From Gammaproteobacteria bacterium (GTDB lineage: Bacteria; Pseudomonadota; Gammaproteobacteria; Eutrophobiales; Eutrophobiaceae): a DNA stretch of 58,306 nt. Numbering within the stretch: the stretch's first letter is position 1; each line of letters begins with the position of its first letter. This document shows positions 8,431 to 58,306 of this stretch, piece by piece. Made by a program: the position numbers and the translations under genes. The DNA lies in assembly GCA_047620145.1 (NCBI GenBank), contig JBLHKO010000004.1, positions 1-58,306 on the forward strand, read 5' to 3'. The notes below the pieces were generated by a model. It was not told where the DNA came from. It ran no database searches and saw only the letters and a program-made list of their open reading frames with translations.

Positions 8431-9921
8431 CTAAACTATATATCCGTAGCGTGCATTATCTCGCAGCTCAGCCGTGTTTGTGAATTTTTGTTTTAGTTGA
8501 GCAATACCATCATTTTCCACGGCTTCTTGTGCCACTTTCGTGTCAAGATTATAGAGCTTCGCAGAATTCAATCCAAATATTTTATTTTTCACTGCACCAT
8601 CAGCCGGTCCAAGTGGTGCAAACCCATGCTTCTTTTGCATGTCTTCAGGAATTTCCAATCGACGCAAGGCCTCAATTTGCCATTGTGGTGATCCGTACCA
8701 AACTGAGTCTGTTCCCCAAACCACATGATCAACGCCTAATCCTTTTATAAGCGTACCCAGTAAGGCGGCAGCAAAACGTGGGTTAGCTGTTGCAGAATTG
8801 GCAAAGCAAGTCCCCAAATCTGCATACACATTACTCACACCATATTCTTCAGGGATGCGAGCTAAATCACTGGCCCATTTAATTTCACCTGTCGCTTCAA
8901 ATTCTGCTAAAGCTTGATCGGGTAATTCAAAGGCGGGGCGTAGACAAGCGTGATAAATAATAAAATTCATCTGCGGCCAATCTTTTGCAGCCTTACCGAT
9001 ATCCCAAGCCGAGGCGTATTGCCAAACATTCGGCCAGCTTTTTTCATAGTCCGCAGGCAACAATCCTTTATGTATCGCGATATTCCTAATACCCGCTTTA
9101 ACAGCCTTTTCATAAAAAGGATACATCAACTTTTCATCATCCAATCGCCATGGATACTGCGTCGTTGCAGTTAATGGATCACCGATGGTATAGGCCTTCC
9201 AGGAATCAGTATGTCCAGTCTCAATGACTTCATTAACCTTGTCCAGCCATCCATCTTGCTTTGGAGTAATCACAAAATGGCCATACATGCGTCGGCTGCC
9301 GGCAAGTTTATTGATAGTCTCTACCGCACCCCGAATTTGATCATTAGCAAGAAACCACCAACTTGGATCATCAAAAGGTGCACCACTCAATAACGCAATT
9401 TTTGTATCACTATTCAAAAAGACTTGTTGGATATAATTTTGGAATTTTAAATCGCTGAGTGATAGCTGATCCTTTGTCAGCCCGGCTTCCCAATGATCGG
9501 CTGCGAAACGAGGAATATTTAACAATCCATCATGTTTGAATTCATCGTGAACAAAATGAGTTTGATCGTCAAAGATAAATTGGTTTTGTAGCGAATTAGC
9601 ACGTGCCATCGCACGTTCTGGCTCTGCAGCTTCGGCTTGGTTGACCATAAACAGTGGTCCAAAGACATCGTTCATTGCTAAAAATGCTGCAGCCATCCCC
9701 GAGGCACTCGTCAAAAACTGTCTGCGACTGAGTCCTTGTTTCTTTCCTAATTCATCCGCCAGCTGTTTTATCCGATTTTCAACGTTCTTTTGTTGTTCCG
9801 TTTGTTTCGTTGGCGTAAATTCGCCATTGGAAATGATTTGAGTAGGTACAGGAGAACTAAAGGCATCTGTTTGTGCAGACTTAAATTGTTTTAATTCCTC
9901 ATCACTAAATAGTTGTGTCAT
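8431..9921 (-). CDS. Amidohydrolase-family (amidohydro_2-like) metalloprotein with internal twin-arginine-like motif
   Basis: DDQTHFV, IAIHKG, FIIYH and VWGTDSVWYGSPQWQI metal-site motifs; SRRQFL followed by a hydrophobic stretch at about aa 65-90. Confidence 0.8.
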   Translation of the reverse strand: MTQLFSDEELKQFKSAQTDAFSSPVPTQIISNGEFTPTKQTEQQKNVENRIKQLADELGKKQGLSRRQFLTSASGMAAAFLAMNDVFGPLFMVNQAEAAEPERAMARANSLQNQFIFDDQTHFVHDEFKHDGLLNIPRFAADHWEAGLTKDQLSLSDLKFQNYIQQVFLNSDTKIALLSGAPFDDPSWWFLANDQIRGAVETINKLAGSRRMYGHFVITPKQDGWLDKVNEVIETGHTDSWKAYTIGDPLTATTQYPWRLDDEKLMYPFYEKAVKAGIRNIAIHKGLLPADYEKSWPNVWQYASAWDIGKAAKDWPQMNFIIYHACLRPAFELPDQALAEFEATGEIKWASDLARIPEEYGVSNVYADLGTCFANSATANPRFAAALLGTLIKGLGVDHVVWGTDSVWYGSPQWQIEALRRLEIPEDMQKKHGFAPLGPADGAVKNKIFGLNSAKLYNLDTKVAQEAVENDGIAQLKQKFTNTAELRDNARYGYIV

Positions 9922-15184: not shown

Positions 15185-16815
15185 TAGCTACCTGCTTCTT
15201 CTCGTAGTTCTACTCTCCGAATCTTGCCAGAAACCGTTTTTGGCAGTGCTTCGCGATATTCAATCTCCCTTGGATATTTGTAAGGGGCCGTGCTCTTTTT
15301 CATAAATTCCTGAATCTCTTTTGTCAATGCCTCACTCGATTCAAAACCAGGAGCAAGGACTATGTATGCTTTTACAATCTCACCGCGAATATCATCTGGC
15401 TTACCAACGGCTGCCGATTCTTGAACGGCAGGATGTTCCAATAATGTGCTCTCCACCTCGAATGGGCTAATGCGATATCCTGACGAACTGATGATGTCAT
15501 CTGAACGACCAACAAACCAAAAATAGCCATCTTCATCAACAGTTCCGGTATCTCCTGTTTGATACCATCCGTTTCTGAAAGATTTTTCTGTTGCTTCGTC
15601 ATCTTGCCAATAACCGGCGAACATTCCTGGGGCTAAAGGATCAGTAATGCGTATAGCAATATGGCCTACTGAATTAACATCACACAACTTGCCATCATCA
15701 TCCACAATCTGCACATCAACACCTGGCGCTGGTTTACCCATGGAGCCTGGTTTAACCGGAATCGCCGGGTAATTGGCAACGATATTGATCGTTTCTGTTT
15801 GACCATAACCATCATAGATGTCAGAACCTGTCGCATTTCGCCAGACCTTGATGACTTCAGGGTTAAGCGGCTCACCCGCGCCTATAGCGTGTCGAATTGA
15901 AGTCAAATTAAATTGCGATAGATCCAACTGTGCAAAGACTCGGTAAACCGTGGGTGGCGCGCAAAAAGTTGTGACACGTAATTTCTCTATCAAATTCAAA
16001 TGTAGTTCAGCGTCGAAACCTTCGCCATTGAAGAGCACCATCGTCGCCCCCATTTGCCACGGAGAAAACAACATCCCCCATGCAGCCTTGGCCCAGCCCG
16101 TATCCGAAAGCGTCCAGTGTATGTCTTCCTCTTCTAGATCCATCCAATAGCGACCAGTAATAGAATGAGCCAACGCGTATGAGTGATCACGCGGTACCAT
16201 TTTCGGCATCGCAGTTGTCCCCGATGTAAAGTAGATAATCATCAGATCTGATGACCGGGTTGGTTCTAATTGCGTTTTATCGATCGTAGCAGATGCTTGT
16301 GATGTTATTTCCGTATAACTTAGCCAACCTTCTCTCGCTTCACCAATGACAATAAAGATTTCCAGTGTCGGGCATAATTGTCGAATTTCATCAACTTTTT
16401 GAGAATGTTCAGCGCTGACAATAACAAGTCTTGCTTTCGATCGATTGATACGATATTCAATATCTTTAGCCGTCAACAAACCAGTTCCCGGCATCGCAAC
16501 AACACCCGATTTACAACAACCAATCATGGCGAAATACCACTCAGGAATGCGCGGCATCATGACAAAGGCGAGATCACCTTTTATTGCACCTGCTGACAGC
16601 AGTGCATTTGCAAATTGATTGGAAGCGACATCTAAATCACTAAAGGCGTAATGTTGAATATTTTCGCCCTTGCCATCAACTGCAATAAAAGCAGTTTTAT
16701 CATGCTCTCTAGCTCTTTGTTCGATGACATCAAAACCAAAATTATAAAACTCTGGGATCTCCAGCTTAAACTGGCTTTTAATCTCATCATAATCGTACAT
16801 TTTTGGTAACTGCAA
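15184..16815 (-). CDS. Short/medium-chain acyl-CoA synthetase (ACSM-like)
   Basis: YFTSGTTAMPKMV, SDTGWAKAAWG, YDGYGQTET, TGD, GRSDD, KTVSGKIRR adenylation motifs. Start TTG 16815 or ATG 16800. Confidence 0.92.
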   Translation of the reverse strand: MQLPKMYDYDEIKSQFKLEIPEFYNFGFDVIEQRAREHDKTAFIAVDGKGENIQHYAFSDLDVASNQFANALLSAGAIKGDLAFVMMPRIPEWYFAMIGCCKSGVVAMPGTGLLTAKDIEYRINRSKARLVIVSAEHSQKVDEIRQLCPTLEIFIVIGEAREGWLSYTEITSQASATIDKTQLEPTRSSDLMIIYFTSGTTAMPKMVPRDHSYALAHSITGRYWMDLEEEDIHWTLSDTGWAKAAWGMLFSPWQMGATMVLFNGEGFDAELHLNLIEKLRVTTFCAPPTVYRVFAQLDLSQFNLTSIRHAIGAGEPLNPEVIKVWRNATGSDIYDGYGQTETINIVANYPAIPVKPGSMGKPAPGVDVQIVDDDGKLCDVNSVGHIAIRITDPLAPGMFAGYWQDDEATEKSFRNGWYQTGDTGTVDEDGYFWFVGRSDDIISSSGYRISPFEVESTLLEHPAVQESAAVGKPDDIRGEIVKAYIVLAPGFESSEALTKEIQEFMKKSTAPYKYPREIEYREALPKTVSGKIRRVELREEAGS

Positions 16816-22191: not shown

Positions 22192-22566
22192 CTAATTAAT
22201 CATCTGATAGGTGAAACTGCCATCCTCAGATGCAAATCCGCTATCCATAGATATCAATACCAAACATGTCTCATCTTTCTCTCCTACATTAACGCAAAAT
22301 TCATCATTTTTTAGAATCCATTTTGCTTTTCTAGTTTTCCCATTTACATCATAGATCATTGTACCGTCTGCATTGAGTATCATTTTTCCTCCAGCACCCG
22401 TTTTATGAGTCCAGTTCATCTCTTGATCAATGAATGCGTCATTAAATTGAGCAGTCGTAAGCCTCTGCTTTGAATTATCGACTACTCCTTCATCGACAGG
22501 CGTGTTTGCGCATGACGCAATGACAGCCACTAATCCTAATACTGCAATTCTTTGGAATAGGTACAT
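22192..22566 (-). CDS. Hypothetical lipoprotein
   Basis: Lipobox-like VIASC after a hydrophobic stretch; ggagg SD; beta-rich body. Confidence 0.7.
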   Translation of the reverse strand: MYLFQRIAVLGLVAVIASCANTPVDEGVVDNSKQRLTTAQFNDAFIDQEMNWTHKTGAGGKMILNADGTMIYDVNGKTRKAKWILKNDEFCVNVGEKDETCLVLISMDSGFASEDGSFTYQMIN

Positions 22567-23395: not shown

Positions 23396-23615
23396 CACTA
23401 GTATGGTCGCTTATTTTTCTTATATAATTGACCAAAATGGCGCGTTTATTGGCTATATAGCGTAAAAAGGTGCCATGATTGTTTTGAAATTGGAAACAAT
23501 CATCCAACAAATATACTATATTGTTTACGAAACAGTTACTGGCACGTTTATTGGGAATTATTGGTAATAAGCGGCCAGTTATTGGCACAAAACAGACATG
23601 TTGCAAGGAGGCACT

Positions 23616-24659
23616 ATGGACACACAGTTTACACCGAAATCTGCCAGACTGATGGATCTCGGCTTTGGCATCCTGCGTTGCTCTACCGACTACATCCCTG
23701 TAGTCGAGGTCAAAGAAACCCTTCGCTTCCATCATTATGCCTACAGTACTGAAAAAACTTATATTCACTGGATTCTCCGTTATATCCGCTTTAATAATCG
23801 TAGCCACCCAAAAGATATGGGTAAGCATGAAATCAAACGATTTTTAAGCCATCTTGCCATCAATCGCGATGTAAGTGCCTCAACACAAAATCAGGCATTG
23901 AACGCTATTCTATTCCTCTATAAGCATGTTTTAAAGTTACCTGTTGATATGAATATCAGAGCTATCAGGTCTGACAAACAAAAAAGATTACCTACTGTAT
24001 TGAGTAAACAGGAAATTCAGGAAATATTTATACATTTATCTGGTGTTAAATTACTGATGGTAAAGTTGATGTATGCAGCTGGGCTAAGAGTAACTGAGCT
24101 ACATGATTTGCGTGTGCAGAATTTTGATTTTGATAATAATCAACTATATATCCGTGACTCTAAAGGGGGAAAAGATAGGATCAGCCTGCTTCCCAAAACA
24201 CTGCATGAGGGTTTGAAGCGACAAATTGAGTCCGTTAAATCCCTTCATCAACAAGATTTAAATGCTGGTTATGGTGAAGTTAGTCTACCTAATGCACTGG
24301 CCAGAAAATATCCTAATGCAGGTAAGACTCTTGGCTGGCAATTTATATTTCCATCAACAAAACTTTCTGCTGATCCTCGCAATGGATTGATACAACGCTA
24401 CCATATTCATATCTCTGTAATCAGAAAGGCAATAAAAGTCGCTGTTACGAAAACAAATATTAATAAAAGAGTGACTACTCATGTGTTTCGACATTCTTTT
24501 GCAACACATCTTTTGGAAGATGGAATCAATATCCGAATGGTTCAAACCTTACTTGGTCATAAAGATGTAAAAACAACTGAAATCTACACACATGTTATGG
24601 ATAAAAGTATATCTGGAGTTATGAGCCCACTTGAAATGCTTGAGAAAAATATAGGTTAG
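23616..24659 (+). CDS. intI: Integron integrase (tyrosine recombinase)
   Basis: YAAGLRVTE, RDSKGGKDR, integron-specific insert (GYGEVSLPNALARKYPNAGKTLGWQFIFPS), HVFRHSFATHLL, LGHKDVKTTEIYTHV. aggagg SD places the start at 23616. Confidence 0.96.
   Translation: MDTQFTPKSARLMDLGFGILRCSTDYIPVVEVKETLRFHHYAYSTEKTYIHWILRYIRFNNRSHPKDMGKHEIKRFLSHLAINRDVSASTQNQALNAILFLYKHVLKLPVDMNIRAIRSDKQKRLPTVLSKQEIQEIFIHLSGVKLLMVKLMYAAGLRVTELHDLRVQNFDFDNNQLYIRDSKGGKDRISLLPKTLHEGLKRQIESVKSLHQQDLNAGYGEVSLPNALARKYPNAGKTLGWQFIFPSTKLSADPRNGLIQRYHIHISVIRKAIKVAVTKTNINKRVTTHVFRHSFATHLLEDGINIRMVQTLLGHKDVKTTEIYTHVMDKSISGVMSPLEMLEKNIG
23658..23705 (+). repeat. 48-bp in-frame insert in intI, homologous to 57687-57735
   Basis: Adds LGFGILRCSTDYIPVV between RLMD and EVKETLR; 38/49 nt identical without gaps to the copy near tRNA-Lys; GACTAC/GTAGTC hairpin with ATCCCT loop. 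Confidence 0.75.
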
Positions 24660-32884: not shown

Positions 32885-34585
32885 TTATGTCCCAGTCTTT
32901 ATCCTGGGGACTGCAGCCAATAGCTGTTGCGTATATGGATCTTGTGGGTTGGTTAAGACTTCATCCACAGTACCCTGCTCTACTATTTTGCCTTGATACA
33001 TGACGGCAACATAATGTGCCAAATATTCAACCACACTAATATTATGTGTAATAAACAGATAACCAAGACCCATATTATCTTGTAGATCTTTTAACAGCTG
33101 AAGAATTTGTGCCTGCACAGAAACGTCCAATGCGCTGGTTGGCTCATCACAAACAATGAGTTTTGGTTCCACAGCCAAGGCTCTGGCAATACATATTCTC
33201 TGCCTCTGTCCACCTGAGAACTCATGTGGATAGCGATTTTTATGCACCGACTCAAGACCCACTTTCTCAAGTAGTTCATCAACACGTTTCATTCTTTCTT
33301 GCCTGGAACCACCAATACCCTGGGCAACCATGCCTTCAGCGATGACATCTGCAATCATCATACGTGGATTCATTGATGAATAAGGATCCTGAAATACAAT
33401 TTGAATATCAGATCGTTGTTGTCTTAAGGCTTTACCTTTTAATTGCGTGAGTTCCTGACCATTGAAAACAACACTACCATCAGATGCGCGTAACAATTGC
33501 AGAATTCCTTTACCGAAAGTAGTTTTTCCTGAACCTGATTCACCGACCATCGCTAACGTCTGTCCGCTATGAATGTCGATAGATACGCCGTCTACTGCTT
33601 TTACATAGCCGACCGTTTTTTTCAACAAGCCTTTTTTAATCGGATAATGTACTTTTAGATCGCGTACTTTTAACAGTACATGTTCGTCATTACTTTCTCT
33701 GGTCGCCCAATTAGTGTTCTGCTTTGCTTCCTGCTTTGCTTCCTGCTTTGCTTCCTGCTTTGCTTCCTGATTAGTTACTGCTTCGGAATCGCGTTTGGCC
33801 TTGCTCGGTATTGCTGCAAACAATTCTTGAGAATAGGCATGTGTTGGATGACTGTAAAATGCATCTCTTGAATTCTGCTCAACGATCTTGCCATAACGCA
33901 TTACCGCAACATCATCAGCCATTTCAGATGCCACCGCCAAATCATGTGTGATAAACATAATCGCCATGCCGGTATCTTTTTGTAACTGTCGCAAAAGATC
34001 TAATACTTGCGCTTGTATAGTGACATCCAATGCTGTGGTTGGCTCATCAGCGATTAATAAATCAGGTTCTCCGGCCAAGGCAATCGCAATCATGATTCTT
34101 TGTTTCATGCCACCAGAGAACTGATGTGGATATTCTTGAATTCGACGTTCAGATTCTGGTATCCCCACAGCATCGAGTAACTCAATAGATCTATTCCGCT
34201 GTTCTACACCGCGCATATTTTTGTGACGTTTTAATGTCTCACCAATTTGTTGGCCTACGGTGAGTACAGGGTTCAGAGATGTCTGCGGTTCCTGAAATAT
34301 CATGGCGATTCGTCTGCCACGAATATCACGCATCGCGAACTCAGGTATTGCAAGTAGATCTTCACCATCGAGAAGAATCTTACCTTGATTGATTCGTGCG
34401 GCAGCGGGTAATAAACGCATGATGGACATGGCTGTGATTGATTTACCACTACCTGATTCACCGAGTAAAGCAAAAGTCTCTCCTCGATTGATTGAGAAAC
34501 TTATACCGTCAACAGCAACTTCGACATGATCTCTTTGACCAAAAGAAGTTTGTAGGTTTACTACTTCAAGTAAGGGTGAAGACAT
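32885..34585 (-). CDS. Peptide/nickel-type ABC transporter, fused double ATPase (YejF/DppDF-like)
   Basis: Two Walker A GESGSGKS/T motifs and two FSGGxxQR signatures. Confidence 0.95.
   Translation of the reverse strand: MSSPLLEVVNLQTSFGQRDHVEVAVDGISFSINRGETFALLGESGSGKSITAMSIMRLLPAAARINQGKILLDGEDLLAIPEFAMRDIRGRRIAMIFQEPQTSLNPVLTVGQQIGETLKRHKNMRGVEQRNRSIELLDAVGIPESERRIQEYPHQFSGGMKQRIMIAIALAGEPDLLIADEPTTALDVTIQAQVLDLLRQLQKDTGMAIMFITHDLAVASEMADDVAVMRYGKIVEQNSRDAFYSHPTHAYSQELFAAIPSKAKRDSEAVTNQEAKQEAKQEAKQEAKQNTNWATRESNDEHVLLKVRDLKVHYPIKKGLLKKTVGYVKAVDGVSIDIHSGQTLAMVGESGSGKTTFGKGILQLLRASDGSVVFNGQELTQLKGKALRQQRSDIQIVFQDPYSSMNPRMMIADVIAEGMVAQGIGGSRQERMKRVDELLEKVGLESVHKNRYPHEFSGGQRQRICIARALAVEPKLIVCDEPTSALDVSVQAQILQLLKDLQDNMGLGYLFITHNISVVEYLAHYVAVMYQGKIVEQGTVDEVLTNPQDPYTQQLLAAVPRIKTGT
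33719..33769. repeat. 12-bp perfect tandem repeat x4 encoding (QEAK)4 in the ATPase linker
   Basis: ctgctttgcttc repeated four times, plus ctg. Confidence 0.95.
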
Positions 34586-57660: not shown

Positions 57661-57670
57661 ATGGTGGGCC

Positions 57671-57770
57671 AGTCGCTATCGGCATCCTCGGTTCTGGCTT
57701 CCTGCTTCACCCTACCTCCTACATCCATGCAGTCGTGCCTTTCGCGACACTCGCACGTCCTTGTACATCG
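57671..57770. repeat. Intergenic dispersed mini-element built of CATCC-loop hairpin modules
   Basis: 57687-57735 matches the intI insert at 38/49 nt; extra ggcatcc and acgtccttgt modules flank it. Confidence 0.65.
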
Positions 57771-57814: not shown

Positions 57815-57861
57815 TGGTGGGCCGTATAGGGTTCGAACCTATGACCTTGGGATTAAGAGTC
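57815..57861 (-). other. 3' half of tRNA-Lys(CTT); att site of an integrated element
   Basis: Minus strand GACTCTTAATCCCAAGGTCATAGGTTCGAACCCTATACGGCCCACCA. tRNA similarity stops 2 nt 5' of the anticodon loop; D-arm and 5' acceptor strand are absent. Confidence 0.88.
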
Positions 57862-58036: not shown

Positions 58037-58306
58037 ATGAGCACATATCGCAAACCACTTACTATAAAGTCTATCGAGGCAATCAAACCACCTACAGTTG
58101 CAGGCCGACAAGATGAGTATTACGACACGAATCAAACTGGTCTTTCACTGAGGGTTGGTACAAGTGGAAAGAAAGTTTTCTATCAGCGTTATCGAGTTGG
58201 CAAGAAACAAGGGCGTATGAAGATAGGTACTTATCCCACTGAGAAAAGCCTCAAGGAAGCAAGAGAGGAAGGGAGTGAATATCTCAAGCAAGCATCCAAG
58301 GGAAAC
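58037..58306 (+). CDS. P4-like tyrosine integrase, N-terminal arm-binding domain (runs off the right edge)
   Basis: Manual translation MSTYRKPLTIKSIEAIKPP...YYDTNQTGLSLRVGTSGKKVFYQRYRVGKKQGRMKIGTYPTEKSLKEAREE, typical of the DUF4102/arm-DNA-binding domain; gagg SD. Confidence 0.85.
   Translation, partial: MSTYRKPLTIKSIEAIKPPTVAGRQDEYYDTNQTGLSLRVGTSGKKVFYQRYRVGKKQGRMKIGTYPTEKSLKEAREEGSEYLKQASKGN

Follow-up and report, generated by a model that had tools for sequence, protein, structure and literature searches.

The locus studied here raises the question of why an integron integrase should carry 16 extra residues near its N-terminus, encoded by a piece of DNA that resembles an intergenic stretch beside a tRNA-Lys gene fragment in the same window, by which we mean the whole stretch of 58,306 nucleotides analyzed, from a gammaproteobacterium of the Eutrophobiaceae (contig JBLHKO010000004.1 of assembly GCA_047620145.1). 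The initial annotation of this DNA took the piece for a coding-compatible mini-element, that is, one member of a dispersed, stop-free family with a length divisible by three that adds peptide to its host proteins. Our reading, to which we assign a probability of roughly 80%, is that a dispersed two-hairpin cassette of 47/48 nt landed in the integrase gene intI and was tolerated there, and that this cassette moves without leaving a scar and is not built to add peptides. The positions of the features are collected in Table 1.

Table 1. Positions of the intI insertion, of the second cassette copy, and of related features (window coordinates unless a contig is named).
Feature	Position	Strand	Details and basis
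intI, integron integrase, 347 aa	23616..24659	+	start is the ATG 7 nt after AGGAGG
48-nt cassette insertion, TCGG...GTCG	23659..23706	+	filled vs. empty comparison (G001, G007); leave-one-out HMM
Hairpin A of the insert	23667..23682	+	stem GGCA / TGCT, loop TCCTGCGT; minus strand reads GCAGGAUGCC; fold
Linker TCTACC (minus strand GGTAGA, containing GTAG)	23682..23687	+	near-invariant, columns 28-32 of alignment A3
Hairpin B of the insert	23688..23705	+	stem GACTACA / TGTAGTC, loop TCCC; minus strand CUACAGGGAUGUAG; stem covaries
Left copy of the 9-bp direct repeat, TGGTGGGCC	57662..57670	+	read directly
Second cassette copy, 48-nt subfamily, intergenic	57688..57735	+	HMM 48.8 bits; covariance model 68 bits
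3' part of a tRNA-Lys(CUU) gene, att-type remnant	57815..57861	-	read directly
Right copy of TGGTGGGCC	57815..57823		3' end of the tRNA-Lys fragment
P4-type integrase ORF	begins at 58038		
~180-nt multi-copy host element in this genome (G000)	C16:~9640-9830, C1:74939-75103, C20:~15990-16200, C2:~22270-22480, also C67, C71, C3, C11		

The Integron Integrase and Its 16 Additional Residues

The protein passes the IntI-specific model TIGR02249 with 417.4 bits (cut-off 265), aligns continuously with residues 7-319 of VchIntIA (2A3V; E 1e-87), and keeps its catalytic set intact, with R158, K183, H289, R292, H315, and Y324 all falling in invariant alignment columns. Its N-terminus reads ...SARLMD-LGFGILRCSTDYIPVV-EVKETLR, with the 16 extra residues following residue 14. 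Among 27 aligned homologues, only P0002, which is 89% identical and comes from a 322-kb JGI contig, contains them, in the form LGYSILCRSTDYILVV; the other 26 (at most 79% identity) read RLMD-QVRETLR, so that the in-frame insert of 16 residues first described in this IntI is indeed present and is missing from 26/27 homologues. Given that insert-bearing N-termini were assembled independently in JGI, ENA, and Logan data (P0123-P0125), an assembly artefact is excluded.

The insert sits at the extreme N-terminus, at the position of VchIntIA residue 6/7 and within the conserved LMD/QVRE motif, while the conserved IntI core begins at residue 30, equivalent to residue 7 of VchIntIA (2A3V). In the AlphaFold model of the protein, residues 1-27 have a pLDDT <50, and the confidence over the insert is too low to tell its fold. 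Comparison of the window allele with the JGI allele, both of which have the insert, gives dS 1.19, dN 0.065, and omega 0.054, and these substitution patterns indicate that intI is under strong purifying selection across both insert-bearing lineages (dN/dS 0.05). Because of this selection, and also because of the location of the site at VchIntIA residue 6/7, the insert looks like a tolerated passenger, and we infer that the protein works with it. The initial annotation had suggested that IntI activity may be altered here, and the strong purifying selection argues for tolerance.

Two further features of this gene and its surroundings may be recorded here. Codons 3-4 of the window intI are lineage-specific, ACA CAG vs. 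AAG AAT in both G001 and JGI, and further lineage-specific changes lie just upstream of the ribosome-binding site (all within 23570-23627). A second intI-like frame in this genome (G000 C16:29659-30636, minus strand) is 50% identical to the window IntI and is interrupted by one TAA.

Empty Sites and the Exact Ends of the Cassette

The closest intI by DNA is that of G001, of the same genus, with 88% nucleotide identity (the JGI allele has 82.5%), and there CTGATGGATC and AAGTCAAGG are joined directly, as they also are in G007, giving the empty site GGATC^AAGTC. Since the closest relative has an empty site, the 48 nt in intI are, on the comparison of these alleles, a true insertion, translated as LGFGILRCSTDYIPVV and also supplying base one of the codon that follows, with its GGA-loop strand on the minus strand, antisense to intI, and with no duplication of target bases. 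The search for an empty site that had been proposed with the first description was thus successful in two genomes. It also refined that description: the length of 48 nt stands, while the ends, formerly placed at 23658-23705, move one base rightward when read from the G001 site; the stem of the second hairpin is there, with the loop TCCC instead of ATCCCT; and of the supposed CTCG/CGAG ends, the host supplies the outermost C on the left and the final AG on the right.

The same ends (TCGR...GTCG) and zero target duplication are found in three independent filled/empty sets, namely intI itself, the C15 copy vs. its empty paralogues on C42 and C59, and the G007 copy at L118 vs. four empty paralogues in this genome. 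Comparisons with G005 and G010 yielded no clean orthologous empty sites for the intergenic copies.

The intI gene of G001 contains a different two-hairpin insertion of 50 nt, AGTCGCTCCTATGCGTCCTGCATCTGCGACACTTGTTCGTCGTGAACATC, right before the catalytic Tyr codon (L005/L016; G001:C10, ~33651-33700, equivalent to window 24582/24583), and its frame is shifted. This insertion does not belong to the same family, given that the covariance model finds no match in it and that it is single-copy at <=3 mismatches in five genomes. The frameshifted gene shows the other outcome of hairpin insertion, opposite to that of the in-frame survivor.

Two Hairpins with Conserved Loops and Variable Stems

The cassette consists, in order, of hairpin A with a variable stem and a TCCTG loop, the linker TCTACC, and hairpin B, and ends in TCG; on the opposite strand, the corresponding motifs read CAGGA, GGUAGA, and AUGGAU. 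The TCCTG loop motif occurs in 37/45 distinct copies and the complete linker in 33/45 (39/45 if written as xCTACC), and the loop of hairpin B is ATCCAT or ATCCCT across the family on a stem that is itself variable, with 4/7 of its pairs changed on both sides and a covariation score that was reached by 0/500 shuffles. As judged from the aligned copies, then, the conserved parts of the cassette are the two loops and the linker, and the stems vary yet stay paired. The cassette ends can also pair with each other (CGACU/AGUCG), providing 5 bp of terminal complementarity. Wobble pairs give zero strand signal, with 8 G.T vs. 9 A.C mispairs, and these equal mispairs, together with the lack of any orientation preference relative to neighboring genes, single out neither DNA nor RNA as the form under selection.

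Of the clean copies in this genome, seven have a unit length of 47 nt and five, among them the two in the window, have 48 nt. A length divisible by three is therefore not a trait of the family, most units of which have 47 nt, the 48 nt being a property of the subfamily to which the intI copy belongs.

The Repeat Family and Its Genomic Context

An HMM built on 16 other copies, with the intI copy left out, scores the intI insert at 37.2 bits (E 3.6e-9 for the whole genome) and the JGI insert at 34.4 bits, and the covariance model gives the intI insert 65 bits. The covariance model finds about 30 copies in this genome. Within the genus, the cassette is present in 11/11 genomes, with 1 to 72 copies per genome; within the family, it is present in 44/61 genomes (26/34 genera), with up to 86 copies per genome; and in the rest of the class, full-length matches of 55-68 bits were obtained in 24/150 sampled genomes, one per family. 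On these sequence comparisons, the conclusion that the insert is a unit of a dispersed hairpin repeat family behaving like a mobile element is supported, and the corresponding proposal of the initial annotation holds, given the ~30 copies and the empty site in the closest relative. The possibility it had named against itself, that no further copies would exist and that the 16 residues would be ancestral, does not agree with these results either, since copies do exist and P0002 alone has the residues.

Almost all copies are found outside genes. Among ~40 HMM hits in this genome, the intI copy is the only one in a real gene, the others being intergenic and in either orientation to their neighbors. 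A second in-gene case turned up among ~100 further genus copies, in opposite orientation, in a PfaC-like protein of G009, where the cassette lies in frame (L101, G009:C108, 1501-1556) in the linker that joins the acyltransferase domain of this PfaC-like PUFA synthase to its FabA-like domain; the orthologue in our genome (C45) is without ~34 residues at this position. Several other frames that span a cassette (L151, L156, L140, L165, L121, L117) were rejected as genes, being translations of hairpin arrays or having no Pfam match. Of the roughly 135 genus copies that were examined, real genes thus contain 2, or ~1.5%.

It is here that the coding part of the original proposal fails. Peptide addition to host proteins concerns 1 of ~31-40 copies in the genome and the two genus copies just described, and freedom from stops is not a family trait, with open frames at 56% vs. 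58% in composition-matched shuffles. Because genic copies are few, open frames are at shuffle level, and most units are 47 nt long, the element is not designed to be coding-compatible, and the in-frame copies at permissive sites are survivors of selection.

Where the flanks of clean copies were inspected by eye, the cassette stood at the tip of a host hairpin in 7/11 cases. A multi-copy element ~180 nt long contains several hairpins with GGA loops and ends in a terminator-like structure; its loop CAAGACA^GGAGTCTTG recurs as a host site and is occupied by the cassette in relatives. Two of these host elements, C1:74939-75103 and C71:7211-7332, match the TwoAYGGAY family RF01731 with 58.8 and 44.6 bits (gathering score 43). 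An Rfam scan of the window at the gathering threshold returned three tRNAs and nothing else, and permissive searches with both window copies and four cassette loci gave no meaningful family, the best match being RsmY with 18.7 bits and E 0.47.

The second copy in the window lies 28 nt after a DsbA-like ORF, where the host DNA forms a small hairpin around it (GGCA^GGATGCC, as read on the GGA strand). The likeness that had first drawn attention to it is borne out, with 39/51 identical positions and no gap between the intI insert and 57687-57737, and a 19-nt degenerate pattern common to both copies has two matches in the window, where 0.01 would be expected by chance. The 9-bp repeats of Table 1 bracket a hairpin-rich spacer of 144 nt containing this copy, and these clustered hairpins may have been inserted at the end of the tRNA along with a duplicate of that gene end; ARAGORN found no complete tRNA at the tRNA-Lys fragment.

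History of the Insertion in intI

Over the whole gene, site patterns group the window allele with G001 and not with JGI, as ((window, G001), JGI). Given that the window and JGI alleles have the insert while the window groups with the insert-less G001, a single gain is insufficient, and the gene tree requires two events, the second of them either a precise loss on the way to G001 or a repeated gain at exactly this nucleotide; as a third option, it is also possible that a very short conversion tract moved the insert. A larger recombination patch carrying the insert between alleles was rejected, with the patterns uniting the window and G001 along the gene and no block uniting the window and JGI near the insert.

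The window and JGI inserts differ at 5/48 nt (10%), all five differences being nonsynonymous and located at positions that are variable in the family, according to alignment A3, so that 5/16 residues of the two peptides differ, and the synonymous sites of the gene are 60% different. Either the cassette nucleotides are under selection or, because the insert divergence is so far below the synonymous divergence, both inserts may be younger than the split of the lineages. The best explanation is that the two lineages conserved the nucleotides that define the cassette, and not the amino acids, with the peptide as a by-product.

Movement of the Cassette and Alternative Explanations

In the explanation that we favor, one cassette unit inserted directly after the first base of codon 15 without duplicating the target, and this copy survived owing to its length of 48 nt, its stop-free frame, and its site in the N-terminal tail before the conserved recombinase core. 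The result is an IntI with 16 extra residues that is presumably tolerated. The family as a whole resides between genes, often nested at hairpin tips, including those of the hairpins of TwoAYGGAY RNAs. The exact ends, the hairpins, and the lack of duplication fit best with a cassette that would travel as folded single-stranded DNA by HUH-type transposition, as IS200/IS605 and REP elements do.

A wider version of this scenario is possible, although we would sooner bet against it than for it. The cassette would be a tiny mobile DNA defined by its structure, with no gene and no footprint, which inserts and excises to the base; the intI alleles would then reflect either an exact excision on the way to G001 or two independent hits on one nucleotide; the loops would be Csr/Rsm-type protein sites scattered through gammaproteobacterial genomes; and the cassette would occasionally be caught in genes, where selection would retain only in-frame copies at permissive sites.

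The most serious rival, which we nevertheless regard as unlikely, is a REP-type nature of the cassette, with a RAYT (a Y1 HUH transposase) as its mobilizing enzyme and the intI copy as a transposition product. A partner of this kind had been suspected from the outset, and two RAYT-like genes do exist in the genome (NF047646, 89.5 bits with a cut-off of 80, and 74 bits). A GTAG, the tetranucleotide typical of REPs, occurs within GGTAGA, the least variable part of the cassette, which on the GGA strand immediately precedes hairpin A, and the insertion without target duplication is consistent with such a transposase. Cassette and Y1_Tnp counts correlate positively but imperfectly over 61 genomes of the family (rho 0.42, p 7e-4, on raw counts that ignore phylogeny and general repeat richness), and Y1 is present in 22/29 of the genomes with >=5 cassettes vs. 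10/32 of the rest. However, no cassette adjoins the RAYT-like genes, which are flanked by unrelated inverted repeats of their own (CAAGGGGGTCAGAACAC... and ACAGGGTCAGGTCTTGCC...); no Y1_Tnp match at E<=1e-8 occurs in G054, a complete genome with 86 cassettes, or in G043, with 28; and the cassette is composed of two different tandem hairpins instead of an inverted REP doublet. The link between RAYT and the cassette is thus weak. As for the inverted repeats themselves, those of the first gene are perfect over 23 nt (L001 1386-1408 / 2191-2213) and those of the second extend over 31 nt at 90% (L002 1424-1454 / 2292-2322), and the motif of the second recurs on contig C91.

We consider it improbable that the cassette spreads not by transposition but by recombination or template switching between hairpins, in the form of gene conversion from TwoAYGGAY-type RNA genes, with the intI copy as a rare illegitimate event. 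Such a process would suit the nesting of copies at hairpin tips and the many copies in the same loop CAAGACA^GGAGTCTTG of the multi-copy element, two copies of which match TwoAYGGAY, but the intI site offers only a mini-hairpin of 3 bp (GAT-C^AA-GTC) with no homology to the usual host hairpin, and boundaries that coincide to the nucleotide in unrelated contexts are more typical of an enzyme-defined element.

Still a little less probable, on the sequence features at hand, is a co-option of the insert, either through its two antisense GGA-loop hairpins, carried by a transcript that reads out of intI toward attI and the gene cassettes, or through sense hairpins or a peptide that would tune IntI expression or activity. 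The GGA loops do resemble Csr/Rsm sites and are putative sites of this type, and one GGA-loop hairpin matches 11/12 positions of the CsrA SELEX consensus RUACARGGAUGU. Two lineages whose synonymous sites are close to saturation share the cassette-defining nucleotides without change, and csrA is found in 6/6 good-quality genomes of the genus; it was not detected in this 90%-complete assembly, where it probably lies in the missing 10%. A promoter-like site is located on the minus strand within intI at 23935-23907, but such sites are no commoner than in shuffles (4 vs. 3.1), the closest relative, G001, does without the insert, and the family has no orientation bias relative to genes. Lastly, that the 16 residues are ordinary lineage-specific IntI sequence with a chance likeness to the intergenic copy, for which the open frame speaks and nothing more, is refuted by the empty site in the closest relative and by the E-value of the HMM from which the insert had been left out, and also disagrees with the ~30 further copies, leaving it a negligible chance.

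Relationship to Known Hairpin Repeats

Returning to the scarless two-hairpin cassette, its closest counterparts are found among small repeats of several kinds. Like the REP/REPIN elements associated with RAYTs, it is a short hairpin repeat with tens of copies, almost all of them extragenic (Bertels & Rainey 2011, PMC3116915; PMC3337134), and it shares with them the zero target duplication, a long vertical persistence in related genomes, and the presence of RAYT-like genes, while its conserved GTAG adjoining a hairpin is a putative counterpart of the REP tetranucleotide. In contrast, a REPIN is an inverted doublet of one palindrome, whereas the cassette joins two different hairpins in tandem, whose loops are conserved and whose stems vary; moreover, no cassettes flank the RAYT genes, cassette-rich genomes without a Y1 transposase exist, and the cassette has nearly the same sequence across many gammaproteobacterial families.

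With the TwoAYGGAY RNA (RF01731; Weinberg 2010, PMC2864571), the cassette has in common two hairpins with GGA loops, the AUGGAU of hairpin B fitting AYGGAY, as well as a multi-copy character with strongly varying copy number, and in this genus it is nested within TwoAYGGAY elements. Nonetheless, it has 47/48 nt compared with 168 model positions and occurs in both orientations relative to genes; its loops are AUGGAU or AGGGAU in hairpin B and CAGGAR, rather than AYGGAY, in hairpin A; and RF01731 gave no match at E<=10 to either window copy and none at E<=1 to four cassette loci. An extended form of TwoAYGGAY with mobile-like expansion, ~10% of whose hits lie in CDS, has been described in a preprint, according to which Csr/Rsm binding has been proposed for the AYGGAY loops (10.64898/2026.09.22.753630).

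The Rickettsia palindromic elements (RPEs) are, according to a review, of ~150 bp and encode a conserved peptide, and in R. conorii (44 insertions) nearly half of them are inside ORFs (PMC10969869). The resemblance lies in a small palindromic repeat that enters genes in frame at permissive sites and adds peptide without destroying the protein; the difference is that ~1.5% of the cassette copies are in genes, that the peptide is unconserved, and that most unit lengths are not a multiple of three.

As for mobile elements proper, the single-strand transposition of the IS200/IS605 family is characterized by seamless insertion, hairpin-structured ends, and the possibility of precise loss. The cassette is likewise seamless, with hairpin ends, no duplication, and a possible precise loss, but it has no linked transposase and no definable target tetranucleotide, and is only 47/48 nt long. 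It also differs from a MITE in having a terminal complementarity of only 5 bp in place of terminal inverted repeats and in the absence of target-site duplication in three filled/empty comparisons. We did not find a description of the cassette in the literature. It comes closest to REP/REPIN in its biology as a repeat, to TwoAYGGAY in the design of its hairpins and in its host context, and to RPE in its in-frame insertion, but departs from all three in a defining property, and we would class it as a variant among small hairpin repeats.

Significance

In summary, the insertion in intI shows that this repeat moves, and not that it is built to add peptide to proteins, and the attractive but wrong idea of a coding-compatible design is corrected here. 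It provides, in addition, a natural IntI variant with an N-terminal insertion of 16 residues kept under purifying selection, and hence a simple construct with which to probe the role of the N-terminal tail. Thanks to a clean filled/empty pair in a conserved gene, the ends of a widespread hairpin cassette are known exactly and its entry is seen to occur without duplication, and because the ends are fixed in this way and nothing is duplicated, the mobility of the cassette, in terms of both precise excision and site choice, becomes testable. At the same time, this ties the cassette to the unexplained world of TwoAYGGAY and Csr-type hairpins.
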